DNA of 64,000 nt, taken from NCBI GenBank assembly GCA_965214245.1, contig CBDCBL010000009.1, forward strand, positions 15,551-79,550. Direction: 5' to 3'. The notes under the pieces are model-generated. The model saw only the letters and a program-made list of their open reading frames with translations. It ran no database searches and was not told the origin of the DNA. This DNA comes from Acidobacteriota bacterium. Lineage in GTDB: Bacteria; Acidobacteriota; UBA890. The number at the start of each line of letters is the position of its first letter. Position 1 is the stretch's first letter. Both the position numbers and the translations under genes were made by a program. Of this stretch, positions 16,373 to 47,026 are shown piece after piece.

Positions 16373-16413
16373 ACGCCCCTGTAGCTCAGGTGGATAGAGC
16401 ACGGGATTCCTAA
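16373..16413 (+). repeat. Partial copy of the 5' half of tRNA-Arg(CCT) (acceptor arm through anticodon loop): att-like direct repeat, left copy
   Basis: The 41 nt cgcccctgtagctcaggtggatagagcacgggattcctaa are identical to 22486-22526 and then diverge from the tRNA. Confidence 0.8.
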
Positions 16414-17007
16414 GGCCATCAGAGCCGTTTCTCGCAACTTCTTGACCTGCTTCGATTTCAGCACAAACCCTTGTTCTCAAAGGGATTGGGGACGCCGGGA
16501 CTGACAGGCCTGACGAGACCAAGAGGACTGAAATCACTGGCAAGTGGCCACGTTTTCGGCCACGCCCACTCAGGCTCTACGGCTGCGTCTTACAATAGGG
16601 TTCAGGGCGTGCCACAGCAGCGCCGCCGGGGCCGTTGTCCTCGACGCTGCTGTTTTGGGGGTAGGGGTGCAGCCTAGATCGTGCGTTGCTGGTCCTTAAA
16701 TCAGCACCGATTCGCTGCCTGTGCGATGCAGCTGTTCCAACAGAACGGCACGTTGGCGGTGAAAACCATGGGGTACGTAGTCGATGACAGCAGATCGCCT
16801 GAGGGGACAAGGACTGCAAGACGTTGCCCCCGAGGAAAATTCCCAGCTCGCTGATCAGAACCAAGAGGACTCGTCGCTCGACAAGCGCCGCTCACCCAAA
16901 GTAATCCAAAGGGCACTAGACGAGTACGGCACTTGTGACCTGTGCCCTGGAGACTGGACCGCGGATAGTGAGAATTTCTCGATAAGAAAACGAGGAGGGA
17001 GATTCTC

Positions 17008-17274
17008 GTGAAGAAGTCGAGGTTCACAGAGCAACAGATTGTGTACGCGATCAAGCAGGTCGAAGCCGGGGTGCCGATCACAGAGTTGTGTCGGAAGTAC
17101 GGAATATCCCAGCAGACGTTCTACCGCTGGCGCAGGAAGTATGGAGGGCTGGCGCCGCGCGAGCTGCAGCGGCTCAAGGAGCTTGAGCGAGAGAACACGC
17201 AACTGAAGAAGCTGGTGGCAGACCTGAGCCTCGACAAGCAGATCCTGCAGGATGTGCTCGCAAGAAAAGATTGA
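17008..17274 (+). CDS. IS3-family transposase OrfA (helix-turn-helix / leucine zipper)
   Basis: MKKSRFTEQQIVYAIKQVEAGVPITELCRKYGISQQTFYRWRRKY... Confidence 0.85.
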   Translation: MKKSRFTEQQIVYAIKQVEAGVPITELCRKYGISQQTFYRWRRKYGGLAPRELQRLKELERENTQLKKLVADLSLDKQILQDVLARKD

Positions 17275-18104
17275 AGCCCGCGCGCAAGAGAAAGCTCGTT
17301 TACCGAGCGCAGGAGCAGTATGGAGCGTCGGAACGGCGAGCGTGTGGGCTCATTCAGATTGGTCGAACAACCCACCGGTACCAGAGCATCAGGGACCCAC
17401 AGGATGAGCTGCGGTTGCGCTTGAAGGAATTGGCGGCAGCCAGACCGCGGTACGGATCTCGGCGTCTGCACATCTTGCTGCAGCGTGAGGGCTGGAAGAT
17501 CAACCACAAGCGGGTTTGCCGGCTGTATCGGGAAGAGGGCCTACAGGTACGTAGACGACGTCGTCGGAAGGTTGCGGCGCGCCCTCGGGTTCGGCTGCCG
17601 GCCCCAAGCGAGCTGAACCATCGGTGGAGTCTGGACTTCGTCGCCGACGAACTGGTGAGCGGTCGCCGTTTCCGGGTACTGACAGTCATCGACATCCATA
17701 GCGGCGAGTGCCTGGCGCTGAAGGCTGGCTTCTCGCTCACCGCACAGATCGTCACCGCACAGCTGGAGGAGATCATCGCCGAGCGCGGAGTGCCGGTCGC
17801 CCTGACCCAAGACAACGGGACGGAGTTCACCTCGAGGCACTACGATGCCTGGGCGTTCTCGGCGGGGATCCAGTTAGACTTCATCCGGCCGGGACGTCCG
17901 GTCGAGAACTGCTACATCGAGAGCTTCAACGGCAAGCTACGAGACGAGTGCTTGAGCCAGAGCTGGTTCCTGAGCCTCTCCGAGGCTCAGGAACAGCTGG
18001 ACGCATTCCGGAAGGACTACAACGAAACGAGACCGCATTCTTCTTTAGGCAACCTGCCGCCTGCCGTGTATGTCCAACTGCTGCAGGAGGTTGCAGCTAC
18101 CTGA
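17271..18104 (+). CDS. IS3-family transposase OrfB (DDE integrase core); made as an OrfAB fusion by -1 frameshift near AAGAAAAGA (17262-17270)
   Basis: ...HRWSLDFV...LTQDNGTEFTS...[14 protein letters not shown]...RPHSSLG is the DDE core. Confidence 0.85.
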   Translation: MKPARKRKLVYRAQEQYGASERRACGLIQIGRTTHRYQSIRDPQDELRLRLKELAAARPRYGSRRLHILLQREGWKINHKRVCRLYREEGLQVRRRRRRKVAARPRVRLPAPSELNHRWSLDFVADELVSGRRFRVLTVIDIHSGECLALKAGFSLTAQIVTAQLEEIIAERGVPVALTQDNGTEFTSRHYDAWAFSAGIQLDFIRPGRPVENCYIESFNGKLRDECLSQSWFLSLSEAQEQLDAFRKDYNETRPHSSLGNLPPAVYVQLLQEVAAT

Positions 18105-18235
18105 TGCCCACTAACCCGAGTTTTTCTCGTTTTCGATGGACCCAAGTTGGGGTACACCTCACAGCACCGTGTTACTGAGATAGAAGGTGGTACTAACCGC
18201 GGGGTCTGGTCACTTGCCCGTCTGATCCCCGCGTC

Positions 18236-18565
18236 ATGATGTACGCAAAACTCCTCGCCGAAGGAAAACGGCAAAGACAAGCGTACCTACTCTGTTACCC
18301 CGAAGCAGCGGAATGGACCCAGAGTTCTCTCGACTCTCAAGCCAGCATCTTGGCTGCTCACCCTAAAGTGGCTGAGTGGAGGGCCTCACACGTCCTGGGT
18401 CCCACAAACCTAGCCCGTGCAGCGACCCCTCAGGCGCTGCGGCGAACGATCGAATTAGGTCAGGGCCAGCACGGCGCAAACGCCAAGGTTCAACTCGACG
18501 CAGCGTCCTCGATACTGGACAGAGGTGGAGTGCCGAGGTCGAAGGAGTTCGCGATTGTGGCTTAG
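18236..18565 (+). CDS. Hypothetical protein inside the integrated element
   Basis: It is a 109-aa ORF in more AT-rich DNA; no recognisable motif. Confidence 0.25.
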   Translation: MMYAKLLAEGKRQRQAYLLCYPEAAEWTQSSLDSQASILAAHPKVAEWRASHVLGPTNLARAATPQALRRTIELGQGQHGANAKVQLDAASSILDRGGVPRSKEFAIVA

Positions 18566-18882
18566 GCGCTGTCGTTGAATCTCATCGCCGAACTTGAAGC
18601 AAGCCCCGACTCCGCACCTCCTGTGTCAGCGCTAGGGGGTGGCCAAGATGCCCTCGAGAAAGCACGCTCAGAATGGGCTGCTTTCTCACCCGGAAAGCAG
18701 GGCGATGACAGGACCACGGAGGCCCGTGCTGGTTCGGCTACCGGTCAAGTGGGACCATCCGGCTTGGGCCGCCGGCCTCCTGGGTAGTAGACGGACATCT
18801 TCTGCTTGGGCAAGGTTCGGCGGCCCTCTAGATTCAGCACGGCCCCGGCTGCTCCGACAGAGCGACCGGGGCCGGATGCTGT

Positions 18883-19479
18883 CTAGACTTCTATTTGGAA
18901 GCTCGCCTTTCGCACATCCTCCTTCGTAATGCCCAAGTAGGTAAGCAGAGCCCCAGGTGTCCGGTGCCCTAGCTTCTCCTGAACGACCGCCATTGGCACA
19001 CACGCTTCAAGTGCGGCTCGGCCCCATGTCTTACGCCACGAGTGCGGCGAATACACGCCGTCCGTGAGGCCCTCAGCCGCCGTGTCACGCTTGATCAGTT
19101 GCCAAGCCCGTCGCCTATCCAGCGGTTTCAATTCGCCCGTATCGGCGTCTCTGTTCCTGCTGGGGAACAATGGTGCACGGGGGTTCAACGGGTCCTGATG
19201 ACCGTCGCCGAGGTAGGCCCGAATCGCTGCCGTGATCTTGGGCGTGATGTCACACGTCACCGTCTTCTTGGTCTTCCGCTGCTTGATCCTGAACGACTTG
19301 CGGATGCCTTTCGAACCTCGCACGTCACCCACCGTGACGGCGAGCAGATCGGAGACGCGCAGCGCCCAATTGGGGCCGGCGGTCCACAGCAGCGCGTCGC
19401 GAAGATTCCCGGAGCCTTTGTGCATGTCCTGAATCACCCGTACCTTCTGGACGGGGATGTAGTCGGATGCGTCAGCCAT
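18883..19479 (-). CDS. Small tyrosine recombinase (198 aa, catalytic domain only; FimB/FimE-sized)
   Basis: The catalytic residues are spaced as expected: R in ALRVSDLLAVTVGDV, HSWRKT, GHRT, and Y in LTYLG. Confidence 0.65.
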   Translation of the reverse strand: MADASDYIPVQKVRVIQDMHKGSGNLRDALLWTAGPNWALRVSDLLAVTVGDVRGSKGIRKSFRIKQRKTKKTVTCDITPKITAAIRAYLGDGHQDPLNPRAPLFPSRNRDADTGELKPLDRRRAWQLIKRDTAAEGLTDGVYSPHSWRKTWGRAALEACVPMAVVQEKLGHRTPGALLTYLGITKEDVRKASFQIEV

Positions 19480-19488
19480 CGGAATCTC

Positions 19489-20314
19489 CTACGCCGCGAC
19501 AGGCTGAGTTTCCTCGGCCTGCCCCAGGATCAGCGCCAACACTTTCTCAACGTCCGAGACAACCTTCAGCGCCAAGCGGTGCGGGTCACCGTTACCGCTG
19601 TAGCCTTTCAGGTAGTCGTATCTGTAACCGTCGTTCGGTGCGCCATACAGCCGCGACAGAACAGCTGCTGATAGCTCGGCGACTGCTTCCTGTGTCGGTC
19701 GCTGTCCACCCTTGAGTTCGTTGCCACGTTCACCCAGAACGCGACGGTGTGCAGCGTGTGCCAGCTCGTGCCAAAACGTTTGGCTGTTGTGGGTAAACAG
19801 GGTGATCTCATCGCGGTCGATTGCGTACGAGCCGTAGGCGCTGACATTGGGCCTGCCGAGGTACTGCAACAGCCACTCCAAGCCGCTCGGCAACGTCTGC
19901 CAGCGCTGGAGGCTCTGGTGGCTCATAGTCGAACGTCGGCAGCACGTCTCCGTCGGTATCCTCGAGACGGAACACGGGAACCGCACGGAACCCCGTCAGC
20001 ACTTGCCGCTTGACCTCCTGGCCGTTGTCCTCCTCGGTGAACGTCTTGAGGTTCAGGGCCAGGATGTAGACGGCCTTGCAGCCTTTCTTGACGTGGCGGC
20101 CCATCTGTTTCCACTGCCGATAGCCGCGAGCGTCGGCAGTACCTGACAGCCAACACATGACGCGGTTGGACAGCGACCACGCGTCGCACGGCCTCACGTC
20201 GTCAGGGTGACGGGGAATCATGTTCTTGGCGATGGCGGTTTCTACCTCGCCTGTACGGAAAGCCTCAAGCAGCTGATCTAGCTGCACCTGGGCCTTGTCT
20301 GGAAGCCTGAACAT
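19489..20314 (-). pseudogene. ardC: ArdC-like antirestriction protein (ssDNA-binding N-domain plus HExxH zincin C-domain), split by a frameshift
   Basis: ORF 19808-20314 is the N-domain. ORF 19489-19986 is the C-domain with AYGSYAIDRDEITLFTHNSQTFWHELAHAAHRR. The two overlap out of frame, and together give about 280 aa. Confidence 0.5.
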
Positions 20315-20457
20315 TGGCTACCTCCTGTGGTTAGTAGTAGACGGACAAGACTATTATGCACAGGTACGTCTAGTTCGTCAACACAAAACCACCATGAAAA
20401 TGTGCTCGAATCAGCGCAAAGCCTTGTCAGGCTTAGATCAGCGGGGATTCACTCAAG

Positions 20458-20487
20458 TAGACACAAAGCCCTTCTGTCTACTTCGGC
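20458..20487. repeat. Palindromic site AGTAGACA-N11-TGTCTACT (copy 1 of a direct-repeat pair)
   Basis: It is repeated at 20765-20794. Related GTAGACG half-sites occur at 18786 and 20340. Confidence 0.5.
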
Positions 20488-20764
20488 GGTTCAAGCAACG
20501 GACGGTCTCCCACGTCGGACAGCGGGCCGTGGTCGCTCGGGAGTCGGAGCCGTTGTCGATGCCGCGGCAGCGCATCGGATCGGGCCTCAGGCAGCGCGAC
20601 GCTTCGGTAGGACGACCGGGGACGACCACGACCCGGGGGGGTGGCGGGACGGGGCATGCCAGGTCGGAGAGGTATACCTGTGACGGTGGTTACTTCCTGA
20701 AACTCGCCGAGTTGAGTCCCACCGGGGGGTTGGCGCTGTGCAAGGGGCACGCTGCGTTGCTGAG

Positions 20765-20794
20765 TAGACACAAGAGCCTTCTGTCGACTTCGAT
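20765..20794. repeat. Palindromic site AGTAGACA-N11-TGTCGACT (copy 2)
   Basis: It is a direct repeat of 20458-20487 in non-coding, AT-richer DNA between the ArdC-like gene and the IS3 remnant. Confidence 0.5.
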
Positions 20795-20864
20795 CTTTGA
20801 GCGGGGTCGCTGAGGTCGTTTTCAAGCCAGGCGAGAAGCGTGGGCCAGGTAGGGCAGGTGTCGG

Positions 20865-21132
20865 TCACCGTCCGGTCGGCACCCGCTGCTTCAATTCCTC
20901 GAACCAGTTGAGGACGACGTTGATGCCGGGGGTAGCGGGGGCGCGGTGGTCGATCCAACCGCACGGATCCTGGGCTCGTTCGAGGACGGCAGTCAGCCCG
21001 CGCAGGTCGAACTGAACGCGTTGCAGCGAAGCTTCAGCAGAATCCGTCGAAAGGCCAATGCGAACCTCGTCGTGCTGCAGCATCGTTCGAATCACGCTGG
21101 TGGCATTGCTTAACTCGAGCCGATTCTGGAGT
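20865..21132 (-). pseudogene. 3' portion of a hypothetical gene truncated by the IS3-family insertion
   Basis: The reading frame continues straight into the IS terminal repeat at ~21133, so the native N-terminus is lost. Confidence 0.3.
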
Positions 21133-21166
21133 TGCCCCGCTTTGGTGGACGGTTCCCCGCTCACAT

Positions 21167-21766
21167 TTAAGCGATCTGAGCGTGCCTCCTTTCGTACCCC
21201 ATGGGCGAGTCGTAGTCCAGGGGTGAGTGTCTGCGACGCGGGTTGTAGAAGCCCTCGATGAACTCGAAGACGGCCATGCGGGCTTCCGCCTGGGACCTGA
21301 ACCGCCGCCGGCGGTTCAGGAGCTCGCACTCGAGGGTGGCGAAGAAGCTCTCGCACATCGCGTTGTCGTAGCAGTCACCGGCTGATCCGGTCGACGGTCG
21401 CACCCCGACCTCCTGGCAGCGCTGACCGAAGGCGATCGACGTGTACTGCGTACCTTGGTCACTGTGATGAATCACCTGTTGGGGCCGTCGTTGCGAGATC
21501 GCCATGTTCAGCGCCTCGAGCACGAACTCGGTGCGCAGATGGGTCGCCATTGACCAACCGACAACGCGACGGCTGAAGACGTCCACGACGACCGACAAGT
21601 ACAAGAACCCTGCCCACGTTGGGATGTAGGTTATGTGGTGCCTCGGCTCTTCCTGTGGATCGCTTCGATCCGTGCCTGCAGCTTTGCGTCCGCCCGCGAT
21701 CGAGCCGACGGTTCCCGCCGGCGCCACGCGTAGTACCCGCTGGAGGAGACCTCCAGCACACGGCAC
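21167..21766 (-). CDS. IS3-family transposase OrfB (DDE core; short, its N-terminal part comes from the frameshift fusion)
   Basis: ...HSDQGTQYTS...DCYDNAMCESFFATLECELL...RRRHSPLDY. Confidence 0.75.
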   Translation of the reverse strand: MPCAGGLLQRVLRVAPAGTVGSIAGGRKAAGTDRSDPQEEPRHHITYIPTWAGFLYLSVVVDVFSRRVVGWSMATHLRTEFVLEALNMAISQRRPQQVIHHSDQGTQYTSIAFGQRCQEVGVRPSTGSAGDCYDNAMCESFFATLECELLNRRRRFRSQAEARMAVFEFIEGFYNPRRRHSPLDYDSPMGYERRHAQIA

Positions 21767-21800
21767 ATCGTGGCAATCGGATACTTCGCCTGGTGACCGC

Positions 21801-22151
21801 TCACGAACTCGAAGACTTCGGCGGTACTGAGTCGGTCTCCCGAGCGAACCAGGCCGCGGCTTTTGAAAGGATCTCCCGCTCTTGCTTCAGCTGGCGGTTC
21901 TCTTTCCGCAGCCGCCCCAGCTCCTCGCGCTCAGCAGTGCTGAGCCCTTCGGCGCTGCGGCCTTCGTCGCGGTCAGCCTGCTTGATCCACTGGCGAATCG
22001 TCCAGTACGACGGCTCGAACTCCTTGGCCAGCTCGGCGACGCTCCGCCCAGCTCGTGCCACTTCTATGATCCGCCGCCGAAACTCCGCCGGGTACGGCCC
22101 TCTTGTCCTTGGCATCCTGAACACCTCCCGTGTACGTCGTAAGGTGTCCAC
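21801..22151 (-). CDS. IS3-family transposase OrfA
   Basis: ...MPRTRGPYPAEFRRRIIEVARAGRSVAELAKEF...LRKENRQLKQEREILSKAAAWFARET. Confidence 0.8.
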   Translation of the reverse strand: MDTLRRTREVFRMPRTRGPYPAEFRRRIIEVARAGRSVAELAKEFEPSYWTIRQWIKQADRDEGRSAEGLSTAEREELGRLRKENRQLKQEREILSKAAAWFARETDSVPPKSSSS

Positions 22152-22163
22152 GAAATCGGGTCA

Positions 22164-22480
22164 AGTCCAAGATCCCCGGCCTGGCTCCTTTCCGGGTGTT
22201 CCACGACTGGCGGCACAGCTTTACTTCGAGGGTGTCAGAGGCAGGGATACCCGAGGCGGTGATTGCCCGGTGGCGGGGCGATGCCGACACGTCGATGCTC
22301 GCTCGCTATCGTCACATGCGGCCCGAAGCTATCGACCACTGGCGCGACGCGCTGCACGAGCGCGATGCAGCCTACCGCAACGGCAGGCTGGTAAACTTGG
22401 GCTCCCGTAGGCGCGAATTGGGGACGGATTTGGGTACGTCGGCCAAGAAGAAATCCCAAACCCCCGAAAACAGCGCCTAA
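22164..22480 (+). pseudogene. C-terminal fragment of a tyrosine integrase gene, truncated at its 5' side by the IS3 element; its 3' end abuts the tRNA-Arg 5' end
   Basis: ...FRVFHDWRHSFTSRVSEAGIPEAVIARWRGDADTSMLARYRHM... (box II and Tyr). It is a paralog of the integrase at 22591-23262. Confidence 0.7.
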
Positions 22481-22487
22481 AGTACCC

Positions 22488-22560
22488 GCCCCTGTAGCTC
22501 AGGTGGATAGAGCACGGGATTCCTAATCCCGGAGCCCAGGTTCGAGTCCTGGCAGGGGCA
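22488..22560 (+). tRNA. tRNA-Arg (anticodon CCT)
   Basis: It folds as a cloverleaf: acceptor GCCCCTG/CAGGGGC, D-arm GCTC..GAGC, anticodon stem CGGGA/TCCCG with loop TTCCTAA, T-arm CCAGG TTCGAGT CCTGG, discriminator A. Confidence 0.85.
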
Positions 22561-22590
22561 TTCAATATCCACGCGGGTTTGCAGCGATTT

Positions 22591-23262
22591 TCAGGCATCC
22601 GAAGTTCGCTTTTTCGCGATCCCTTGCCGCATTTCTTGCCACTCTTGCCGGGAGATAACGATCAGCTCGCCTTCGGCCAGGTTGTCGGCCTGCTTTTCAA
22701 GGGCGTCGGCGGCGCCAGTAAGAGCCGCTGATCGCATGTGCGAGTAGCGGTTCACCATCTGCGTGTCGGAGTGCCCGAGCAACGCGGCGATCCACTGTTC
22801 CGGGATGCCCTGTTCGGTGAGCCTCGACGCGTAGCCGTGGCGCAGATCGTGGATCCGGAACGGCGGCATCTTCACGCCTTCGCTTGAGCGCACCGTATGG
22901 AACGCCTTGCGGATGTTGGTGTACGGCTGGCCTGTCCGGGGTGACGGAAACAGCCACTCGGTACCGGCCAGGTTGGCGGCCTGGACCTTGCGCGCGAGCT
23001 CATCCCGTAACCGATTGGTCATCGGAATCTGGCGCGGCGTGTCGTTCTTCGTTTCGAGTGCGTCAATCGCTTCGCGGGGCGGGCCGTCTTCGCGCGGGTG
23101 CAGATCGAACCGGATGTTGCGCACCCGTAACGTCAGCGCCTCGTTCATCCGGAGCCCCGCATCCCAAAAGCACACCACGATCGCGTTTACGAATCTCGAA
23201 ACTCCTTGGTCGGGCCAGCAGGGTTCAAGGAGACCGCGCGAGAAATCCGATACCCATCTCAC
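22591..23262 (-). CDS. Tyrosine integrase (223 aa, catalytic domain; N-terminal core-binding domain apparently missing)
   Basis: ...LRMNEALTLRVRNI...FRIHDLRHGYASRLTEQGIPEQWIAALLGHSDTQMVNRYSHM. The start lies inside the thioredoxin-fragment region. Confidence 0.65.
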   Translation of the reverse strand: MRWVSDFSRGLLEPCWPDQGVSRFVNAIVVCFWDAGLRMNEALTLRVRNIRFDLHPREDGPPREAIDALETKNDTPRQIPMTNRLRDELARKVQAANLAGTEWLFPSPRTGQPYTNIRKAFHTVRSSEGVKMPPFRIHDLRHGYASRLTEQGIPEQWIAALLGHSDTQMVNRYSHMRSAALTGAADALEKQADNLAEGELIVISRQEWQEMRQGIAKKRTSDA

Positions 23263-23515
23263 CTAGCCTGTTTGAGGTTTCCGTCCACACTGGCAGGGTC
23301 GCCTCGCAAAACTTGCACGTGGTAGTGAAAAAGGCGAGAACAGTAACGCCCGACTCCACGACGGTGTCGAGCCTTCCTGTATCTTCCCCAAGGCTAGTCA
23401 AAGCGATGGGGGCGAGCACGTTTCCCACCTGCACAATCTCGAGTTCGGCTCCGCCTTGCGACCGCGCAGCTAGGTTACGCTTGAGAGCCCGATTCTGTTC
23501 GACCAGAAACAACAT
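23225..23515 (-). pseudogene. N-terminal fragment of a thioredoxin-like (TlpA/redoxin) gene
   Basis: ...VTVLAFFTTTCKFCEATLPVWTETSNRLGEMGIGFLA has the CxxC motif. The frame runs into the integrase region and there is no C-terminal half. Confidence 0.45.
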
Positions 23516-23547
23516 TACGCCGCAGACTGAAAAAACCGTCGCTATGG

Positions 23548-23748
23548 TTGACCGATCGCCTTGGGGCTGAAGCGATTCGCATCCCCTATGTACCGGTCAC
23601 GGTCCTGGTGGATGAGAATCGGATGGTTCAAGGTATTTGGAAGGGGGCGTTGAGTGACGTCGACATGGACGCCATCATCGGCGCGGCTGCCAGGTTCGCT
23701 ACCAGCGACGGCGCCGTAACTGGTAATGATGGAACACCGACCAGATAG
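23548..23748 (+). pseudogene. C-terminal fragment of a thioredoxin-like gene on the opposite strand
   Basis: ...IRIPYVPVTVLVDENRMVQGIW... resembles the redoxin C-terminal beta-alpha region. It diverges from the N-terminal fragment above. Confidence 0.35.
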
Positions 23749-23757
23749 GCTAGATGG

Positions 23758-24378
23758 ATGACGAAAGCTAGCGTCCTGCTGGGTGCAAGCCTTGCATGGT
23801 CAATGACCCTGTTCGCCTGCGCGAGCTCCGGTGATCCGGCCACGGACGAGTGGCGGGTAACGCGCGTAGTCAATGGCACCGTCACCACTATTCGGAACGA
23901 AGCGGGATCCAAGTGGGGTAGGCCAGCGCGACTTGTCGAGGAGCTGTCGATTGGGGAGGAAGCCAGCGAGGCGCCTTTCATTTTCGGTGACGTGACCGAT
24001 ATTTGGGCGACGGAGGACCGGATCTATGTGGTCGACATACAGGTTCCTGCGGTCAGGGTGTATGACCACAACGGCAACTACATCAAGGACATCGGAGCGG
24101 CTGGTCCCGGCCCAGGAGAGTACGAGAAGCCTCACTATGTCGCGGTTGCTTCCGATGGCAGGATTTTCGTGACCGAGCTGAGTACTGTGGCCACCATCAA
24201 CGTGTACGGCGAAGACGGAAACTACTTGGAAACATGGACTTGGCCGAGAGGCGGGACCGGGATTGGGTTCTCCTTGAGCGTCGATGACGTCGTGTACGTG
24301 GGACTTCGCGACTACTTCGATCTTATTGACCAGACCCCGCGGTTAGTACCACCTTCTATCTCAGTAACACGGTGCTGA
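23758..24378 (+). pseudogene. NHL/beta-propeller-repeat lipoprotein gene truncated by an IS insertion (C-terminus encoded by the IS end)
   Basis: There is a signal peptide with a lipobox (LFAC). The last 16 residues [16 protein letters not shown] are read from the IS3 terminal repeat that begins at 24327. Confidence 0.55.
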
Positions 24379-24866
24379 CAAGATGTTGTTGAGGCCGGCG
24401 AAGCGTAGCGTAGCCGGTTTCAACAACACCGCTTCCGGTGCCGGAGGTCGATAGCCCAGCGAGCTGTGCGGTCGTACGCGGTTGTACTGCTGGCGCCATC
24501 TCTCGATCAGAACCTTTGCCTCCTTCAGCGTGTAGAAGATCTCCCCGTTCAGCAGCTCGTCTCTGAGCTTGCCGTTGAAGCTCTCCACATAGCCGTTCTC
24601 CCATGGGGAGCCCGGCTCGATGAACAGCGTGCCGACGCCGAGCCGGCCCAACCAGTCGCGAACCGCCTCGGCGGTGAATTCCGGTCCGTTATCTGACCTG
24701 ATGTGCGCTGGAATACCTCGATGAACGAACAGTCGTCCTAGTCGGTGAAGTACGTTCTCGGAGTTGAGCTTCCGCGCCACGTCGATTGCAAGGCTCTCCC
24801 GTGTGTACTCGTCGACGATCGTCAGCAGCCTCATAGCCCGACCGTCATGCGTCCGGTGGTGGACGA

Positions 24867-26234
24867 GGATGTGTCCCGAAGTTTGTAGAAAATCGTCTGG
24901 CGTGGCTCCGAGCTTGGACGTTTGACGTTACCTGCTACGCGGCCAACTCCTCCTGTTGGTCGATGATCGCGGCGAGATGCCGGTACCCGTCGATGCGGCG
25001 CATGCGGATCTGCCCGAACGCGATCAGCCCCCACAGCAGCGTCACCCCGGCCGCCTCGGTGCTGAACGATCCCTGGGTCTTGGTACGGCGACGGAACTCG
25101 CGGTTGAGGTTCTCCAGTGGGTTCGTCGTGCGCAGCGTCTTGCACATCGGTTTGGGGAACTCGTAGAAGGTCAGCAGCACCAGCCCCGCTTCCTCGAGGC
25201 TGCGCGCCACCGCCGGCACCAACCTCGACCACTTGCGCACGAAGTTGCTGTACGCGGCCCTCGCCTCGCTGCCGTTTGCCGCCTTCACGATGCGGTCCCA
25301 GTCTCGTTTCAGCTCGTCGTGGGCGTGTGACGGGCAATGCTTCAACAGATTCTTCCACTTGTGCTGAAGGCAGCGCTGCACCTTCGCTTCGGGCCACACC
25401 GTCGTCGCCTTGGCCAGCCCTTTGTGGCCGTCGGCGATGATCAGCCGGGGCGGCCGAAGACCTCTTTGCTCTAGGTCCTCGATCAGCCACTTCCAGTGAC
25501 ACCCGGCCTCCGAAGCGGCCCGACGCAACGCCACCAACACCTTGCGCCCATCTTCCGCCACTCCCAGCGCGGCGAAGATCGGCACCGACACGACCTGCCG
25601 CGCCAACCTCACCTTCAGGTGGAACCCGTCCAGGTACACGATCGGGTACGACTCACCGGTCAGATCGCGCTCGCACCACGTCCCGAACAGCTTCTTCAGC
25701 CGCCCCACCACCCTTGAGATCGCGCTCTTCGAGAGGTTCGCTTCACCCAGCAGCGGCGCGAGCGCCTTGCGGATCCGTCGGCTATTTGCACCCGCCAGGT
25801 ACACCCCTAGAATCGCCTCGTCGACTTCCTCGGTGCGCCGTTGATACCGCGGCAGGATCGTGCTGCGGAACTCCCCGGTGCTGCCGTCCTCTCGCAGCAG
25901 CCGTCCCCGTGGTACCTCCAGATCCTGCGGCCCCTGCGCCATCGTGATCTGCCGCCGATACGTCCCGTGCCGATATCCTCGCCGCGAGCCGTTGCGCTCG
26001 TACGGCCCGCATCCCAACGCCTCGGCGAGCTCCTCCTCAAGCGTGATCGTAATCGCCTCCTGGATGCGGCTGTGCAGCAGCTCCTGGATGGCGCTACGGA
26101 ACTCGATGACCGATACCTCTCCCGTGCTACCGTTGCTCATGGTGTGACCTCCTTGTTGTCGCCGTTTCCAGCGACTCGTTTTTCCTACTCGGAGGTTACG
26201 CCATTTCTTTTTCTACAGGACTCGGGACGGATCC
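24867..26234 (-). mobile_element. IS256-family insertion sequence (1368 bp) with an 8-bp TSD GTGGACGA
   Basis: Imperfect ~26-bp terminal inverted repeats GGATGTGTCCCGAAGTTTGTAGAAAA / TTTTCTACAGGACTCGGGACGGATCC. The TSD is at 24859-24866 and 26235-26242, and it restores the IS3 OrfB frame. Confidence 0.8.
24935..26140 (-). CDS. IS256-family (mutator-type) transposase
   Basis: It is 401 aa: ...YLDGFHLKVR...ADGHKGL...CLQHKWKN... Confidence 0.9.
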   Translation of the reverse strand: MSNGSTGEVSVIEFRSAIQELLHSRIQEAITITLEEELAEALGCGPYERNGSRRGYRHGTYRRQITMAQGPQDLEVPRGRLLREDGSTGEFRSTILPRYQRRTEEVDEAILGVYLAGANSRRIRKALAPLLGEANLSKSAISRVVGRLKKLFGTWCERDLTGESYPIVYLDGFHLKVRLARQVVSVPIFAALGVAEDGRKVLVALRRAASEAGCHWKWLIEDLEQRGLRPPRLIIADGHKGLAKATTVWPEAKVQRCLQHKWKNLLKHCPSHAHDELKRDWDRIVKAANGSEARAAYSNFVRKWSRLVPAVARSLEEAGLVLLTFYEFPKPMCKTLRTTNPLENLNREFRRRTKTQGSFSTEAAGVTLLWGLIAFGQIRMRRIDGYRHLAAIIDQQEELAA

Positions 26235-26620
26235 GTGGACGAAGTCATACGCCCAGACATGATCCTTGTTCTCGGGGCGCAGTCGGATGCAGGAGCCATC
26301 GTTGAGCCACAGCCGTGCTCGCTTGGGCTGTTTCTTCGGTACTTTCAGCCCCTCGCGCCGCCAGATCCGTTGCACCCGCTTGTGGTTCACGAGCCAGCCC
26401 TCCATGCGCAGTAGCGCCGTCACTCGCCGATACCCGTAGCGGCCATACTCTCGGGCTAGGTTCACGATCCTCTCCTCCGTCAGCACCTGCTCGTCGTCCG
26501 GTTGCCGTGGCACGTACCGCTGCGTCGTGCGCGACTGTTTCAGCACCCGGCACGCTCGTCGCTCGGAAACGCCCAGCCTCCGCCGAACATGCTCAACCGC
26601 ATCTCGGCGACGTGCCGGGC

Positions 26621-26899
26621 TCAGAAGTTTCCCTCCGCAACTTCCTTCAGGATCGAAAGATCCAGCTCCTTTTCCGCCACAATCTTCTTGAGCCGGACGT
26701 TCTCCTTCTCAAGTTGCTTCAGCCGCCTGGCCTCGTCGACCCTCAGCCCCCCGTACTCGCGTCGCCACCGGTAGTAGGTGTGCTCGGTGATTGCTAGCTT
26801 GCGGCAGGCATCCTTGACCGTCGCGCCGCGGGCCAGCTCCACCTCAGCCTCCCGTAGCTTCCGTACGATCTGCTCTGCGCTGTGCCTCTTCGCCGGCAT
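26621..26899 (-). CDS. IS3-family transposase OrfA of the disrupted IS
   Basis: MPAKRHSAEQIVRKLREAEVELARGATVKDACRKLAITEHTYYRWRREYGG... Confidence 0.8.
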   Translation of the reverse strand: MPAKRHSAEQIVRKLREAEVELARGATVKDACRKLAITEHTYYRWRREYGGLRVDEARRLKQLEKENVRLKKIVAEKELDLSILKEVAEGNF

Positions 26900-27101
26900 T
26901 CTAACCTCCCTTTTTCGACCCGGATCGTGAGATTACCTCTGGATCCGTTTTGGGGGGTCAGGTCACCCGTCGATTTTCTTTGCGGGGCTCGGCGCGTCGG
27001 CCGCACGGAAGGTAGGCGAAACGTAGGCGCCAGGGGAATTACGCCGAAACCCCCTAAGGCGAAGGAACGCCGTAAGTTGTTGATATCAAGGGGTTTAAAA
27101 A

Positions 27102-28686: not shown

Positions 28687-28740
28687 TCAAGAACGGCGAA
28701 GCTCCGACAAGTTGCCGAGGCTGTTGCCGTCGTAAGTAGA

Positions 28741-28768
28741 TCCATGACACTTTCACCACGGCCTGCTA
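28741..28768. repeat. 33-bp inverted-repeat family, degenerate A-form copy (tCCATGACACTTTCACCACGGCCTGCTA)
   Basis: It ends 13 nt before the DUF2065 start codon. Upstream DNA resembles the interior of the family's other copies. Confidence 0.6.
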
Positions 28769-28781
28769 GCATCGACGCACA

Positions 28782-28982
28782 ATGGACTGGCAGCTCATAT
28801 TGCTGGCCTTGGGGTTGGCGTTGATCATCGAAGGGCTGCCGTACTTTCTGTTTCCCGTGGGGACGCTCCGGACTCTCCGTCAGCTTGAGAGCCTCGGCCC
28901 CGAGGCGGCCCGGTTTTTGGGCCTCGCGGCGTTGATTGCCGGTCTCGTGCTGCTCTTTGTGGGAAGGCTGGCGGCGGGGTGA
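28782..28982 (+). CDS. DUF2065-family small membrane protein
   Basis: MDWQLILLALGLALIIEGLPYFLFP... is 66 aa. It is bracketed by A-form (28741-28768) and B-form (28980-29013) repeats, and its TGA stop is the first 3 nt of the B repeat. Confidence 0.6.
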   Translation: MDWQLILLALGLALIIEGLPYFLFPVGTLRTLRQLESLGPEAARFLGLAALIAGLVLLFVGRLAAG

Positions 28983-29013
28983 GCAGGCCGTGGTGAAAGT
29001 GTGATGGGTCTGG
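28980..29013. repeat. 33-bp inverted-repeat family, B-form copy (TGAGCAGGCCGTGGTGAAAGTGTGATGGGTCTGG)
   Basis: It contains GGTG-N8-ATG. The ATG at 29004 is the likely start codon of the downstream HEAT-repeat lipoprotein. Confidence 0.7.
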
Positions 29014-29759
29014 TTGAGGTGAGGCGGCTCCCACTGGTTGCTGGGATGGTAGCGGCGCTCGCCGCCGGTTGTGCGACGGCCGACCCGACACCCGCTGTCG
29101 TGAAGCGGATCATCGATGAGCTCAGCACCCAACAGTTCGGACGCGCCACGGCGTTGTACACCGAGCGGGAGGAGATGGTCCTCAGCCCGCCCGCGGCGCC
29201 CGGTTGGCGGCGCGGCATGGATCACGAAGACGCGACCGTTCGCGAGTGGTCGATCGACGCCCTCAGCCGCATCGCATTGCCGGAAGACGTGCCTCTCGTC
29301 GTCGCGGCGTTGGACGATCCCTTCCGGCGGGTTCAGGAGGCGGCGGCGCAGGGCCTCATCGACATGGACCCGGTGGCGGCGCGCGTCGCTTTCATCGACC
29401 GTCTGTCGGAGGGTGACCCGAGGCAACAGACGATTGCGGCGCAGGGCCTCGCCGATCTGGGCGATACGGAGGCGGTGCCGGCGCTCGTCGGGCAACTCAG
29501 CGACGAACGGCTCGCCGCCGGGTTGCGTGGCGTGATCGCGCAGTCGCTGTCCCGCCTCGGCGATGTTCGCGCCGTGGAGCCCCTCGCCGCGCTGGCGGGC
29601 AACTCGGATGCGGATACGCAGTTGCGACGTACGGCCGTCGAGGCGCTGGCCGGTATCGAGGGCGAGGCGACGGTGCGGGCTCTGGAGAGCTTGCTGGAAG
29701 CGGACGACTCCTATGTCCAGGACGTTGCGCGGCGCGTCCTCGACGCGCTCAAACGGTAA
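29004..29759 (+). CDS. HEAT-repeat (PBS-lyase-like) probable lipoprotein
   Basis: The signal sequence is MGLVEVRRLPLVAGMVAALAAGC. The body has repeated ...AxxAL..IGD..AVP.L...L motifs. Confidence 0.6.
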   Translation: MGLVEVRRLPLVAGMVAALAAGCATADPTPAVVKRIIDELSTQQFGRATALYTEREEMVLSPPAAPGWRRGMDHEDATVREWSIDALSRIALPEDVPLVVAALDDPFRRVQEAAAQGLIDMDPVAARVAFIDRLSEGDPRQQTIAAQGLADLGDTEAVPALVGQLSDERLAAGLRGVIAQSLSRLGDVRAVEPLAALAGNSDADTQLRRTAVEALAGIEGEATVRALESLLEADDSYVQDVARRVLDALKR

Positions 29760-33267: not shown

Positions 33268-33282
33268 TTTCCGAGCTCTAGC

Positions 33283-33315
33283 AGACCCATCACACTTTCA
33301 GCAGGGCCTGCTCAA
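33283..33315. repeat. 33-bp inverted-repeat family, solo variant A-form copy
   Basis: GCAGACCCATCACACTTTCAGCAGGGCCTGCTC sits in the divergent tsaB/mutS intergenic region. Confidence 0.6.
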
Positions 33316-36063: not shown

Positions 36064-36660
36064 TCAGGTGGCTGCCGACTTCGACGTCATCGAAGCCTGC
36101 CAACGATAGAAAGCGTAGCCGCCGCCGGCGATCGCGATACCCAACGCCAGGCCGAACAGCGGACCATTCGATTGCACCGCCTCGATGATGCTGCGTCCGT
36201 AGCGGGCGGCCAGGAATGCCTCAGCGCCGAAGCGGATGAGCCGACCGACGCCCACCCCGATCAGAACGCTGGGAACCGATTGTCGAAGGTAGCCGACCGT
36301 GACGATCACGACCTTGAAGGGGAACGGCGCGGGCATGAGTGCCGCGATCATCAGGGCGAGGGTACCCCGCCGTTGCAGGAAGCCCTCCGCCCAGGCCAGC
36401 CGCTCACCGCTGCCGCTCGATAGCTTACGGCCGCTGCGGGCGAGGCCGTAGACGAGCATGACGCCGATCGTCGAACCGATGATGGCAGCGACCCCGTAGC
36501 CGACGGCGTTCTGCGGCGCCAGTGTCGCCGCACCCATTACGGCAAGGTCGATGAAAGCCGGCATGGGGATGAACGAGGAATCGAGCGCCGACAACACGAG
36601 GATCCCGAAGGCTCCGTAGGGGGCCAGAAATTCTTGGAACCAGGCAGCGAGAGATTCCAT
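36064..36660 (-). CDS. DedA/YqaA-family (VTT domain) membrane protein
   Basis: ...FGILVLSALDSSFIPMPAFIDLAV... with 4-5 TM helices. Confidence 0.7.
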   Translation of the reverse strand: MESLAAWFQEFLAPYGAFGILVLSALDSSFIPMPAFIDLAVMGAATLAPQNAVGYGVAAIIGSTIGVMLVYGLARSGRKLSSGSGERLAWAEGFLQRRGTLALMIAALMPAPFPFKVVIVTVGYLRQSVPSVLIGVGVGRLIRFGAEAFLAARYGRSIIEAVQSNGPLFGLALGIAIAGGGYAFYRWQASMTSKSAAT

Positions 36661-36701
36661 TCGGCACGTGAGGTCAGGTTAGGGCAAGTGTAAACAGGCC
36701 C

Positions 36702-36900
36702 TAGCAGGCCGTGGTGGAAGTGTGATGGGTCTGGCGCGCCCGCAACCCCCACGCGCGCCCCTGCGGGTTGCGACGACAAAAGGCCATCTGCGGCGTTGCC
36801 GCTCCTCGACGATGTATCAACATCGCCGTAGTCGCGGCGCCTTGCATCTGGCCTCTTGTCGTCGCAACCAGACCCATCACACTTTCACCACGGCCTGCTA
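36702..36900. mobile_element. MITE/REP-like element (199 bp) with perfect 33-bp terminal inverted repeats
   Basis: TAGCAGGCCGTGGTGGAAGTGTGATGGGTCTGG ... CCAGACCCATCACACTTTCACCACGGCCTGCTA. The interior is hairpin-rich and 95 bp of it resemble copy 46402-46681. Confidence 0.75.
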
Positions 36901-36942
36901 GGAGGGGGAACCGTTCAGCGCGTCACGCTACCATCGGGCGCA

Positions 36943-38105
36943 TGGACCAAGCAATCGAGCCACAACTCATCATCGGCCTCTCGTCGGGCACGTCGATGGA
37001 CGGAATCGACGCGGCGCTCGTGCGTCTTGTCGAGGCCAGCGACGACGTTGATCTCGTGGCCTTCCGCACGTATCCGTACGCGGTGGAGCTGGCGGAGGCG
37101 CTCCGCGCCGCTACCGATGCGACCTCGGCGTCGAACATCGCGTTGCTCGACGCTGCCGTCGGCGAAGCATTTGCGAGCGCCGCCACCGACTTGCTGGCGG
37201 CTGCGGGCGTGAGCTCCGGAGCGGTCCGCGGCATCGGCTCGCACGGCCAAACACTCGTGCACCTGCCCGATCTCCAAACATTCGCCGGGCGGCAGGTTCG
37301 CGCGACGTTGCAAATCGGCAACGCCGCCGTCATTGCCGAGCGCACGGGTATCACGACGGTGTCCGACTTTCGCTCCCGTGACGTTGCTGCCGGCGGCCAG
37401 GGGGCGCCGCTCGTGCCGCTGCTGGATCACAGGCTGTACCGCGATCCCGACCGTGGTCGCGCGGTGCTGAACATCGGCGGCATCGCCAACCTCACCGCGC
37501 TGCCGCCGGCGGCGCGTCTTGAAGAGGTACAGGCGTTCGATACCGGTCCGGGCAACGTGTTGCTCGACAGCGCGGCGCGCTTGCGCGGCCTGTCGGCCGG
37601 ATACGACGTCGACGGCAGACTGGGGCTTGCGGGAGCCGCCGACGCGGCGGTGCTCGAGCTGGCGTTGGCGCATCCGTTTTTCCAGGCGGCGCCGCCGAAG
37701 TCCGCCGACTCCGGTGATTTCCTGGGCCACTTTGCCGCATCGTTGTGGGACGCGTCCGCTTCTCTGAATGACGCCGCGTTGTTCGCCACGTTGGCAGCGC
37801 TCACCGCCCGCACGGTGGGCGATGCGATCGATGCGTTCATTCGTCCGTTGCAGCCAGTCGACGAGGTCGTCATATCGGGGGGCGGGGCTCACAACCGGGC
37901 CGTGGTCGAGGCTCTCGCGAGCCGCTTGGGCGAAACACCGCTGCGTACTTCGGAGGAGGTCGCGGGCCTTCCCGGCGATGCCAAGGAGGCCGTCGCCTTC
38001 GCCCTGCTGGCGTTCGAGACGCTAGGCGGCCGCAGCGGCAACGTTCCCGCAGGCACGGGCGCGGATGGCCCTCGGCTGCTCGGTGCCATCACGCCCGCAG
38101 GGTGA
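36943..38105 (+). CDS. anmK: Anhydro-N-acetylmuramic acid kinase
   Basis: MDQAIEPQLIIGLSSGTSMDGIDAALV... Confidence 0.85.
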
Positions 38106-44619: not shown

Positions 44620-46404
44620 ATGCCGAAATCGACAAGACGTTCGTGTGTTCCGCTGACCTTCGCGATAATGCTCTTGCTCGCCGCGCCTTCCGCGGCCGTT
44701 TCTTCCTCGCCGCAGGAGCTCTTCGAGCGCGCTGAAACGCTGTATCGGCAGCTCGAGGTCGTGGATCCCTCCGGCGAAGCCGCCTCTTGGGCTCGAGTAA
44801 CGGATGCTTTCGCCGCTGTCGCGACGCGCTACCCTGACAGCCCGCTAGCCTCTGAAGCTCTGTGGCGGATGTCGTGGATCTACGGCCGCCAGGGTCGGGC
44901 TGGCGACCCCGCCTCGTCGGCACGCCAACTCGAGCTGTACCGGGAGCTGGTTCAGCACTATCCAACAAGCCCGCACGCGCCTGAAGCCTTACTCCGGTTG
45001 GCGGCGGATGCCGAGGGGGAGGGTGGGGCCCGCGCCGCGGTGCTCTATTCCCGATTGCTCCAACAATATCCTTCGACGCCACAGGCTTCGCTGGCCCGGA
45101 ACCGGATGGCCGGAGTCATCCGCGCCAATCCCGATGCCGATCCAGCAACGGTGACGACCGGAGAGGCTCCGCGGAGACCGGCGCCGAGCGTGCCGGAGCC
45201 TGAACGCCGGCTGGCAGCTCCGGCGCCCGGTTCCGAAGCGGAACAGCCTCGCCCATCGACCGACAGTGACGTCGCGGACAACCTCGCCGTGCTCAGCGGT
45301 GTCCGCTACTACAGCGACCGCACATACACGCGGATCGTGCTCGACCTCGATCGGTCGGTGACCTACCAGACCGGCGAGGCCCATTCCCCGGAGAGGTTAT
45401 TCGTCGATCTCAAGGGCGTCGGCAAACCTAAAGACTTGCCGGGAGCTCGGCCTTCGGGACGCGAGCAGGTTATCGCTGTCGATGGCAACGCGGTGTCGCG
45501 TGTGCGCGTCGCCTTGAACCAGCCCGGCATCGTCCGCGTGGTGATCGACCTTGCCCAGACGTCGAAGTACACGATGTTCACGCTCGACAAGGTGGACGAG
45601 CCGTTCCGCATCGTCATCGATGTGCCGACGGCGACGGTTGCGTCGCGCCTTCGCGATGAGCGCCGGCCGGCGCAGCCGGAGGGCGGGTCGATAACCGAGC
45701 AGCTCGGCCTCGGGGTGCACCGCGTGGTCATCGATCCGGGGCATGGTGGCACCGACCCGGGGGCCATCGGCCGCACCGGAGCTACCGAGAAAGAGCTGGC
45801 GCTGGCGCTGTCCCAGACGCTCGCGACGCGTTTACGAGAGAGCGGCTACGAAGTCATCTTGACGCGCGACGAGGACCGCACGGTGTCGCTGCAGGAGCGC
45901 ACCGAGTTCGCCAATCGTGTCGACGCCGATCTTTTCATCTCGATGCACATAAACTCGGCGCGCAATCGCAAGCTGCGTGGTTTCGAGACGTACTATCTGA
46001 ATCTTGCCAACGATCCGACCGCGGCCGAGGCCGCAGCGCGCGAGAACGCCGCCGGGCAACGCGGCAGCATGGGTGATCTGCAAGAGACGCTGGAGCTCAT
46101 CGTCAGTAATGAGTACCAGGGGGCTTCGGGAGAGCTCGCCGCGTCGATTCAGGACAGCCTGGTGATGCACGTCTCGAAGAACTACCAGAACGTGCACGAC
46201 CTGGGCGTCAAGACCGCGCCCTTCTTTGTGCTGGTGGGCGCCGAGATGCCGGCCATCCTGATCGAGGCCTCGTTCGTGAGCAACGAACAGGAAGAGGCCT
46301 GGCTGAAGAGTAGCGACTACAGAGTTCAGGTGGCCGAGGCCATCGAGATCGGCCTGCAGAGCTATGTCGACAAGCGTCGGGTCACGGCTCAGAGGGGTCG
46401 CTAG
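44620..46404 (+). CDS. N-acetylmuramoyl-L-alanine amidase (AmiC-like) with N-terminal TPR-like and AMIN domains
   Basis: A signal peptide is followed by ...VVIDPGHGGTDPGA...FISMHINS.... The TAG stop is the first 3 nt of the MITE-like repeat. Confidence 0.8.
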   Translation: MPKSTRRSCVPLTFAIMLLLAAPSAAVSSSPQELFERAETLYRQLEVVDPSGEAASWARVTDAFAAVATRYPDSPLASEALWRMSWIYGRQGRAGDPASSARQLELYRELVQHYPTSPHAPEALLRLAADAEGEGGARAAVLYSRLLQQYPSTPQASLARNRMAGVIRANPDADPATVTTGEAPRRPAPSVPEPERRLAAPAPGSEAEQPRPSTDSDVADNLAVLSGVRYYSDRTYTRIVLDLDRSVTYQTGEAHSPERLFVDLKGVGKPKDLPGARPSGREQVIAVDGNAVSRVRVALNQPGIVRVVIDLAQTSKYTMFTLDKVDEPFRIVIDVPTATVASRLRDERRPAQPEGGSITEQLGLGVHRVVIDPGHGGTDPGAIGRTGATEKELALALSQTLATRLRESGYEVILTRDEDRTVSLQERTEFANRVDADLFISMHINSARNRKLRGFETYYLNLANDPTAAEAAARENAAGQRGSMGDLQETLELIVSNEYQGASGELAASIQDSLVMHVSKNYQNVHDLGVKTAPFFVLVGAEMPAILIEASFVSNEQEEAWLKSSDYRVQVAEAIEIGLQSYVDKRRVTAQRGR

Positions 46405-46681
46405 CAGGCCGTGGTGAAAGTGTGATGGGTCTGGCCGCGCGGGTATTGTAGTCGAGGGCAAGGAGCGCCGACACAGGCGATGCCGGAGCCATCGTCGAGG
46501 AGGCGCGACGCCGCCATCGGCTGCAAGACGCGCGCGCCCGGAGGGTTGAGGCGAGGAGGGGGCATCTGCGGCGTTGCTGCTCCTCCACGATACGTCAAGA
46601 GCATCGCGGTCGTCACAGCGCCTTGCATCTGCCCCCTTCTCGCCTCAACCAGACCCATCACACTTTCACCACGGCCTGCTA
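46402..46681. mobile_element. MITE/REP-like element (280 bp) with 33-bp terminal inverted repeats, exactly filling the gap between two convergent stop codons
   Basis: TAGCAGGCCGTGGTGAAAGTGTGATGGGTCTGG at 46402-46434 and its reverse complement at 46649-46681. The terminal TAG and CTA triplets are the stop codons of the flanking genes. Confidence 0.8.
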
Positions 46682-47026
46682 GGGCCAGTAGGTCGCACTG
46701 AAGCCCGCCGCCTCGCCGATTTCGACGTGCAGGACCTCTGTGCCCGGCAGCTCGCGATCGAGCAGCTCGGCGAGCGTGCGCGCCACCTCCTCGGCGGTTG
46801 GGTTCACCGCATCGAAGGGGGGAACGTCGTTGAAGCAAGCACCCTCGTGACGGGTGACCCACGCGTCGAGGACGGCGCGGGCTTGTACGGCTGCTTCTTC
46901 CGCCCGCGCCGAGCGCAGTGATGCTTTGATGCGCCAGTTGTGAGCGTGCAACGGCTCGAGCGTGCCGCGCGAATCGATGCGAATGCGATGTGTTGCCGGA
47001 AACTCGGCGGCGAGACAGAAGATCAT
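46679..47026 (-). CDS. 6-pyruvoyl-tetrahydropterin synthase / QueD-family protein
   Basis: It has the ...LHAHNWRI... His motif and is 115 aa. Its stop codon lies inside the repeat terminus. Confidence 0.6.
   Translation of the reverse strand: MIFCLAAEFPATHRIRIDSRGTLEPLHAHNWRIKASLRSARAEEAAVQARAVLDAWVTRHEGACFNDVPPFDAVNPTAEEVARTLAELLDRELPGTEVLHVEIGEAAGFSATYWP

Follow-up and report, generated by a model that had tools for sequence, protein, structure and literature searches.

A miniature inverted-repeat element with a conserved hairpin interior, probably IS630-dependent, in uncultured Acidobacteriota

Genes and features around copy A

The window is the whole 64-kb stretch of DNA analysed here, and the element under study, named copy A, occupies positions 36701-36901 of it (201 bp). 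The AnmK gene lies to its right at 36942-38105 on the plus strand (Pfam, 314 bits). To its left, at 36064-36660 on the minus strand, a gene encodes a 198-aa membrane protein whose VTT/DedA match reached 26.7 bits, below the cutoff of 33.9. The two genes are divergent and point away from the element. The first-pass annotation had placed the element between a DedA-family gene and anmK, and this position was confirmed, the DedA domain match being below cutoff.

Copy A is bounded by 34-bp terminal inverted repeats with the sequence CTAGCAGGCCGTGGTG[G/A]AAGTGTGATGGGTCTGG, which begins with CTAGCAGG. The left repeat (36701-36734, plus strand) has G at position 17 and therefore one mismatch, and the right repeat (36868-36901, minus strand) has the consensus sequence with no mismatch. 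If the TA is a target duplication, the element proper runs from 36704 to 36898. The inverted repeats and their single G/A difference had been reported before as 33 bp in a 199-bp element; both features are real, and one base more at each end gives 34 bp and 201 bp.

The interior contains one intact 105-nt hairpin module, module X, at 36766-36869. Its sense is the minus strand, inward from the right end, as identified by fold and by covariance model R1, which scored 103.6 bits on the minus strand and 39.8 bits on the plus strand. No second module was found in copy A by the covariance model. Through comparison with full copies, the 27-nt hairpin GGCGCGCCCGCAACCCCCACGCGCGCC at 36733-36759 was recognized as the remnant of module Y, which retains its outer stem and has lost about 80 nt of core. 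Copy A is thus an internal-deletion derivative of a ~280-bp element that lost most of one module, and not the full copy it had been taken for. The internal palindromes noticed earlier were recovered: 36766-36791 pairs with 36844-36869 (26 nt, 88%). Folding, which had been proposed as a check, gave near-perfect branched hairpins for the whole of copy A (-144.5 kcal/mol, z = -17.5) and for copy B (z = -13.8).

Directly left of copy A are 22 extra bases (36679-36700) that are absent from two syntenic relatives, L104 and L105, in the alignment (such labels denote related loci). They are unique in all sequence compared, and their reverse complement CTAGGGCCTGTTTACAC resembles the end CTAGTGGCCTGTAACAG of a sister family described below. 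A related element that inserted earlier may have left them behind.

Other family members in the window

Five family sites were found in the 64-kb window, all intergenic or at gene ends, and the 34-mer search gave 5 matches where 0 were expected from 100 shuffles. Exactly three modules were detected in the window by the covariance model (36766-36869, minus; 46544-46650, minus; 46434-46538, plus), the last two belonging to copy B. This is a full-length member of 282 bp (46401-46682), absent from the syntenic L104, with two perfect 34-bp ends (46401-46434 and 46649-46682). Its module Y (46434-46538) has plus-strand sense (R1 96.6 bits plus, 24.3 bits minus), and its module X (46544-46650) has minus-strand sense (98.6 bits minus, 36 bits plus). 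Copy B is located between convergent genes for an AMIN/Amidase_3 amidase (plus) and a PTPS-family protein (minus), and both genes end on its terminal TAGs, which act as their stop codons. The PTPS protein of the window has 115 aa, that of L104 has 123 aa.

The remaining sites are decayed. Between purA and a DUF2065 gene, a one-ended remnant at 28721-28769 consists of a degenerate end (28736-28769) and part of a module stem, and has a diverged counterpart in L104. A second one-ended remnant, at 28980-29026 on the plus strand, contains the 34-bp end (28980-29013, two mismatches) and the start of module X; the DUF2065 gene takes its TGA stop codon from the first bases of this remnant, whose inner part extends over the start of a HEAT-repeat lipoprotein gene. 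In the L104 counterpart of this remnant (2118-2200), the called start of the lipoprotein gene is the ATG of the module's CAGATG. Upstream of a TsaB-like gene, a 37-bp mini-element with both termini (CTAGCAG...CTGCTCA) is present at 33278-33314 on the minus strand, its degenerate end spanning 33281-33314.

Copies A and B are 74% identical over part of the interior (36759-36834 and 46537-46612) and 89% identical over the interior and right end (36821-36902 and 46602-46683). The interior common to the two copies, claimed from the first reading, is therefore real, and the similarity extends well beyond the terminal repeats. In a 14-nt module stem segment, 7 of 14 positions differ between them and all seven are compensated, so the two copies belong to different subfamilies. 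The earlier argument that two such copies speak for recent mobility rather than chance palindromes thus holds for a recently mobile inverted-repeat element, while A and B themselves are not recent copies of each other.

The window also carries other mobile DNA. An IS256-family (Mutator-type) transposase gene lies in the region 24361-26965, within a segment of about 1.37 kb (24866-26236) without counterpart in the L077 locus, which is otherwise 85-88% identical. This insertion interrupts an IS3-family (rve) element, and the transposase ORFs are at 24361-24834 and 24935-26140, both on the minus strand. Two inverted IS3-family copies share a 51-bp perfect inverted repeat (18162-18212 and 24327-24377). 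In the region 16374-24624 we also found a 40-bp exact direct repeat (16374-16413 and 22487-22526) over the 5' part of tRNA-Arg(CCT), and a short ORF of the phage-integrase family at 18883-19479. The region 16374-24624 looks like a rearranged integrated element unrelated to copy A.

Empty sites in related genomes

The syntenic relatives L104 (a 4.39-Mb contig) and L105 were found via their AnmK homologues, which are 89-90% identical to the AnmK of the window. Copy A is absent from the same spacer in both, where the flanks are otherwise alignable. The empty spacer reads ...GGTCAG-GCGAGGAGGGGGAACC..., and in the window the 22 extra bases and the element precede GAGGGGGAACC.

Copy B is absent from L104, the only one of the two relatives that covers the site. 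L104 shows GGTCGCTAG-AGCCGGGCCAG, with a single CTAG, and the window GGTCG-CTAG[element]CTAG-GGCCAG, with two. Over a longer stretch, L104 reads GGTCG-CTAG-AGCCGGGCCAGTAAG and the window GGTCG-CTAG[CAGG...CCTG]CTAG-GGCCAGTAGG. The empty sites are not base-perfect, with a 5-bp difference at copy B besides the element and the 22 extra bases at copy A.

Neither L104 nor L105 has the 37-bp mini-element. The remnant at 28980 is common to the window and L104, and is 33 bp longer in the latter. It is the one occupied site across 21 kb of L104, against five in the window. A more distant locus, L037 (about 72-75% DNA identity), is also without copy B and has a solo end where the window is empty.

Recent mobility, as the first-pass annotation had proposed, is borne out: copy A is missing in the two closest relatives and copy B in one, and the family is multi-copy in at least 13 other genomes. 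Copy A is a real, recently inserted, shortened copy of a miniature transposon.

The repeat family and its architecture

The family was searched with an exact 21-mer from the terminal repeat, and the figures given here cover the matches listed. This 21-mer occurs in at least 102 stretches from at least 13 assemblies, all of them Acidobacteriota or metagenome-assembled genomes, and several of the contigs are megabase-scale. Among the listed loci we found 39 two-ended copies, 30 of which are 276-286 bp long and the others 169-365 bp, and many truncated ones. Full copies placed in one orientation have a mean identity of 82%.

The full element of about 280 bp is composed of a 34-bp end, the 105-nt module X, a spacer of 5-6 nt, the inverted module Y and a second 34-bp end. 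The ends are conserved across the 30 full copies. Since module Y is a diverged inverted copy of X, the element consists of two inverted halves of about 140 bp. In every dimer, plus is the sense strand of the left module and minus that of the right one.

Decay forms are frequent. Short forms range from 169 to 216 bp, copy A with 201 bp among them. The 169-bp forms join X's left arm to Y's right arm, and in one copy the core of X has been lost between two CAGATG repeats. Mini forms of 37 to 47 bp, of which 33278-33314 in the window is one, keep both termini (...GGGTCTGCTAG); the 37-bp form was also found in L038, L040 and L075. In L077 (6146-6350), a tandem array contains four 51-bp units, each consisting of a 34-bp end and CAAGTGGGACTCACGGG up to an internal CTAG; it may have arisen from repeated insertion or deletion at CTAG, or by slippage. 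Behind a truncated family copy in L005 (about 5195-5260) comes a stretch rich in A+T and in CTAG (ctcctagaacttctagggaacatttgttaggattgctcacctaggaattctaagg) that differs from the DNA around it and may be a different inserted element. In L037, from genome DASWHK01, the short intergenic motif GTGCGGGCTAGCTA / ATGCGGGCTAGCTA occurs in two spacers (2400-2450 and 4335-4355) and may represent a further CTAG-associated repeat.

Family copies sit in intergenic spacers of every gene orientation. We found no conserved ORF in them: loop lengths vary out of frame and stems change with compensation. A coding reading of the module, starting at the ATG after GAGGAG, was rejected because the ATG is not conserved and the loop lengths shift the frame. 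All genuine Pfam matches belong to flanking genes. Against Rfam 15 no family match was obtained, only tRNAs reaching the gathering score in the window, and a permissive threshold over copies A and B gave only sub-threshold generic microRNA-precursor hairpins. Copy B had no BLAST counterpart among 72,556 plasmids, and the scan of viral contigs was likewise negative. Consensus scans around both copies detected neither a sigma-70-like promoter nor a U-tract terminator inside them.

Secondary structure and covariation of the modules

The structure is kept to a degree well above that expected from common sequence descent. In the 30 full copies, 97.7% of cells were paired against 88.8% in shuffles, and 40 of 94 pairs showed compensated double changes. 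The shuffles gave 22.7 +/- 2.1 such pairs and reached 40 in 0 of 500 cases; slid controls gave 6-11. Position 17 of the end, where copy A has its G/A difference, covaries with a partner elsewhere in the element (A-T in 23 copies, G-C in 5). A similar result came from 74 modules of three families in the A9 alignment, which was fitted to the model: 94.2% of cells were paired (71.8% in shuffles), 26 of 37 pairs were compensated, several of them with three to five pair types, and the covariation score was 0.543 (0.166 shuffled, 0.07-0.10 in slid controls). Because the copies are related by descent, these counts overstate the number of independent events.

The outer stems of the modules vary freely and the core sequence is kept, with the form GCAAGGCG..GAC..GGCGATG-loop-CATCGTCGAGGAG..CAACGC.GC. 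This core is conserved across three families with different ends, and the interior is better conserved than the ends. On the strand that runs inward from the nearer end, the fold of each module is more stable by 6-7 kcal/mol (28 of 30 and 25 of 30 copies for the two modules). On the inward strand G.U pairs outnumber A.C mismatches by 157 to 37, an excess present only in the conserved inner helices; the outer stems have 10 G.U and 20 A.C.

Such strong compensatory change suggests that a single-stranded structure is maintained, and from these alignments the hairpin structure appears to be maintained, acting perhaps as single-stranded DNA or RNA. Template switching during replication, known as palindrome correction, can also perfect the arms of a palindrome without selection.

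Target site

In most copies CTAG stands at both ends (CTAG...CTAG) and the direct repeat extends no further; the outermost base of this bracket varies more than the inner ones. The end variants ATAG..CTAG, GTAG..CTAG, TTAG..CTAC and CTAG..CTAT agree better with duplication of TA, the outer bases being free, than with a 4-bp duplication; for CTAA/CTAA in L003 and L067 the 4-bp duplication is the better fit. CTAG is palindromic and does not by itself separate 2 bp from 4 bp; among 10 informative copies, four favour the TA duplication against two for the 4-bp one, and we infer the 2-bp duplication. In L054, L101 and L095, copies sit nested at CTAG sequences in the loops of other elements' hairpins. 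Since CTAG holds TAG on both strands, element ends can fall on stop codons. Beyond the examples in the window, this was seen at about 12 of 78 other element ends, using only the coincidences from a crude GC3 gene caller that misses known genes.

Association with IS630-family elements and sister families

In genome CBDFKO01, the flank TCTCCTGTAACAGT beside several copies is the end of a 1,204-bp insertion sequence of the IS630 family. At least five near-identical copies of it were found in this one genome (L055 1706-2909; also L031, L053, L061 and L090). It is bracketed by CTAG, and all five examined copies adjoin the terminal CTAG of a miniature family member. The element encodes a 363-aa transposase (NCBIfam NF033545, IS630-family, 292.5 bits against a cutoff of 100) with Pfam DDE_3 and HTH domains. 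Thousands of relatives of this transposase, 75-93% identical, are present in public metagenomes. A second IS630-family element, whose transposase is 52% identical, sits in CTAG/CTAA, and a third begins at CTAG.

Two sister families, F2 and F3, have the same end-X-Y-end layout and homologous module cores, 61% identical overall to the consensus of the copy A/B family. F2, with ends CTAGTGGCCTGTAACAGATGATCGTTGC and two modules, was found at L101 5511-6066, L054 4673-5135, L083 3433-3990 and L077 ~6060-6700. F3, with ends CTAGTGCTCCTGATCATAAGTACGGTGACGTTTG and two modules, lies at L083 3986-4262 in tandem with an F2 element, the junction CTAG being common to both. Judged by eye, the ends of F2 and F3 are about 70-75% identical to those of the 1,204-bp element. 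The ends of the copy A/B family resemble the IS630-type ends seen only in the first ~12 nt (CTAG-nGGCC-GT). L054 and L101, two contigs of one genome, carry the same F2 element with the same nested main-family copy (185 bp and 286 bp, respectively), so the composite seems to have been copied as a unit.

We searched for an autonomous element with the family's own 34-bp ends (TA-GCAGGCCGTGG) and found none in about 0.8 Mb of related loci or with a targeted metagenome pattern. A search of the related loci for pairs of ends 0.6-6 kb apart gave no such element, and the ORFs next to the inspected solo ends were all ordinary, housekeeping-like genes. tblastn with the IS630 transposase returned only elements with other ends. 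The metagenome pattern, which required a non-module base after the end, gave two ordinary copies and one solo end assembled twice. The transposases of the window itself were rejected as a partner, being of the IS256 and IS3 families and unrelated to the copy A/B family.

Origin of copy A and alternative explanations

We consider it likely that copy A is a non-autonomous miniature inverted-repeat transposable element (MITE) from a family that is common in uncultured Acidobacteriota and was not described before, and that it moves by cut-and-paste, driven in trans by a transposase of the IS630/Tc1-mariner type with duplication of TA within CTAG. IS630/Tc1/mariner elements duplicate a TA target, and the ends of ISY100/IS630 begin right after the TA (PMC2170065). 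IS630 is indicated to prefer TA within CTAG, in PMC2170065 and by the title of Tenzen and Ohtsubo 1991 cited there. Taken together, the CTAG target, the IS630-like ends of F2 and F3 and the TA duplication of IS630 make it the most economical reading that an IS630-type transposase also moves the copy A/B family.

The MITE reading leaves the interior to be considered. DDE cut-and-paste by itself does not require interior hairpins, and does not explain why they are compensated or why the interior is better conserved than the ends across the sister families. It could be instead that the 105-nt module is a functional structured RNA or single-stranded DNA under selection, the ends being merely a vehicle exchanged at least three times. 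The module might then be a stabiliser, insulator or processing site on read-through transcripts from either side, or a hairpin that enhances transposition or is needed by the transposition machinery or a host factor. The pairing of the modules and their compensated pairs with up to five pair types per position, the excess of compensated pairs in the whole element, the core common to three families with different ends, the better fold on the inward strand and the preponderance of G.U over A.C there all fit such a function, as does the fixed left-plus/right-minus sense of every dimer, by which a strand entering from either end meets the better-folding orientation. However, copies occur in any orientation to genes, often carry deletions or truncations, and differ in presence between close relatives, which makes individual copies dispensable; and promoter and terminator were missing from copies A and B in the consensus scans. 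Moreover, the kinship of the copies inflates the counts, the G.U bias is confined to the conserved core, the A9 alignment was fitted to the model, and template switching could give compensated arms without selection. We therefore hold a selected module with exchangeable ends to be rather unlikely as the main explanation.

A repeat of the REP/REPIN type spread by a RAYT (Y1) transposase, or a palindrome derived from IS200/IS605 that is mobilised in single-stranded DNA form and integrates 3' of CTAG, is very improbable. The 34-mer does occur singly and in inverted pairs, the hairpins are compensated, and the empty and filled sites of copy B are formally compatible with insertion 3' of a tetranucleotide. 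But folding the 34-mer gave only -1.8 and 0 kcal/mol (z = -0.6 and +0.9), and a GTAG or CGTC tag is missing from it; not being a hairpin, it is not a REP unit, and the 'solo' 34-mers are deletion products with the opposite terminus (...GGGTCTGCTAG) or module fragments. IS200/IS605 elements have no terminal inverted repeats and carry subterminal hairpins on the same strand at both ends, whereas here the terminal inverted repeats are long and true, the modules are mutually inverted and the sister-family ends match an IS630-family element. As for a chance palindrome, unrelated intergenic palindromes or an assembly artefact, only the high G+C of the genome speaks for them. They are refuted for practical purposes by the five matches against none expected, by the same element in independent long-read and short-read assemblies of at least 13 genomes, and by a public 982-kb ENA metagenome contig that reproduces the window sequence.

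Under the IS630-type MITE reading, a trans-acting transposase, most probably from the IS630/Tc1-mariner family, would bind the terminal repeats, and the element would be excised and inserted at TA, preferentially within CTAG, with duplication of the TA. Insertion at TA in CTAG would account for the CTAG brackets, the placement on TAG stop codons and the nesting in ends and loops of other elements. Copy A would have entered the spacer between the DedA-like gene and anmK in the lineage of the window, and about 80 bp of one module would have been lost after insertion or already in the source copy.

Comparison with known systems

The copy A/B family resembles IS630/ISY100 in its CTAG sites, with TA as the probable target, and an IS630-family element of the same look is present in the same genomes. 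IS630 and ISY100 encode their own transposase, whereas the family has no coding capacity and its ends are alike for the first ~12 nt only. The closest precedent in kind is RUP of Streptococcus pneumoniae, proposed to be mobilised by IS630-Spn1 on end similarity and target only (PMC2229807). Like the copy A/B family, RUP is short and non-coding, has terminal inverted repeats and is often located in or next to insertion sequences; it inserts at TA, the probable target of the copy A/B family too (PMC2229807). RUP is 107 bp long with 9-bp ends matching a known insertion sequence, whereas the family described here has a length of about 280 bp, 34-bp ends and two 105-nt modules, and a cognate insertion sequence was not found for it; the two have no sequence similarity and belong to different host phyla.

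The Correia/NEMIS elements of Neisseria are similar in having TA at the ends, inverted repeats of 24 to 26 bp, variants of two lengths that differ by an internal segment, and transcripts predicted to fold into long stem-loops (PMC2229807). They are 107-155 bp long, with an IHF site, promoter elements and documented RNase III processing, and have no sequence relation to the copy A/B family, in which the interior is an inverted module pair common to families with different ends. REP/BIME and REPIN-RAYT repeats are likewise abundant and intergenic, occur singly or in inverted pairs and evolve so as to preserve hairpins (PMC2817692, PMC3733652). REPs are imperfect palindromes of 20 to 40 nt with a GTAG or CGTC tag and a Y1 transposase, whereas the copy A/B repeat unit is non-palindromic, its target is probably duplicated and the linked transposase is of the DDE type. 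Considering these comparisons, copy A represents a new family of a well-known kind of element, the bacterial MITE, probably IS630-dependent. Its unusual feature is the structured interior, conserved across families with different ends.

Significance for Acidobacteriota genomes

The repeat family matters for annotation and assembly, as it breaks short-read assemblies and many related contigs end inside copies. Neighbouring genes owe stop codons to the copies and, at some sites, start regions as well. The family also marks recent genome change between close uncultured Acidobacteriota.

Three families that have one hairpin-rich interior and different ends, all at CTAG near IS630-family elements, form a natural system. 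It could be used to ask how miniature elements recruit new transposases, and whether the interior is selected for transposition or for an effect on host transcripts. Should the module turn out to work as RNA, a major soil phylum would harbour a widespread structured element that has so far gone unannotated.
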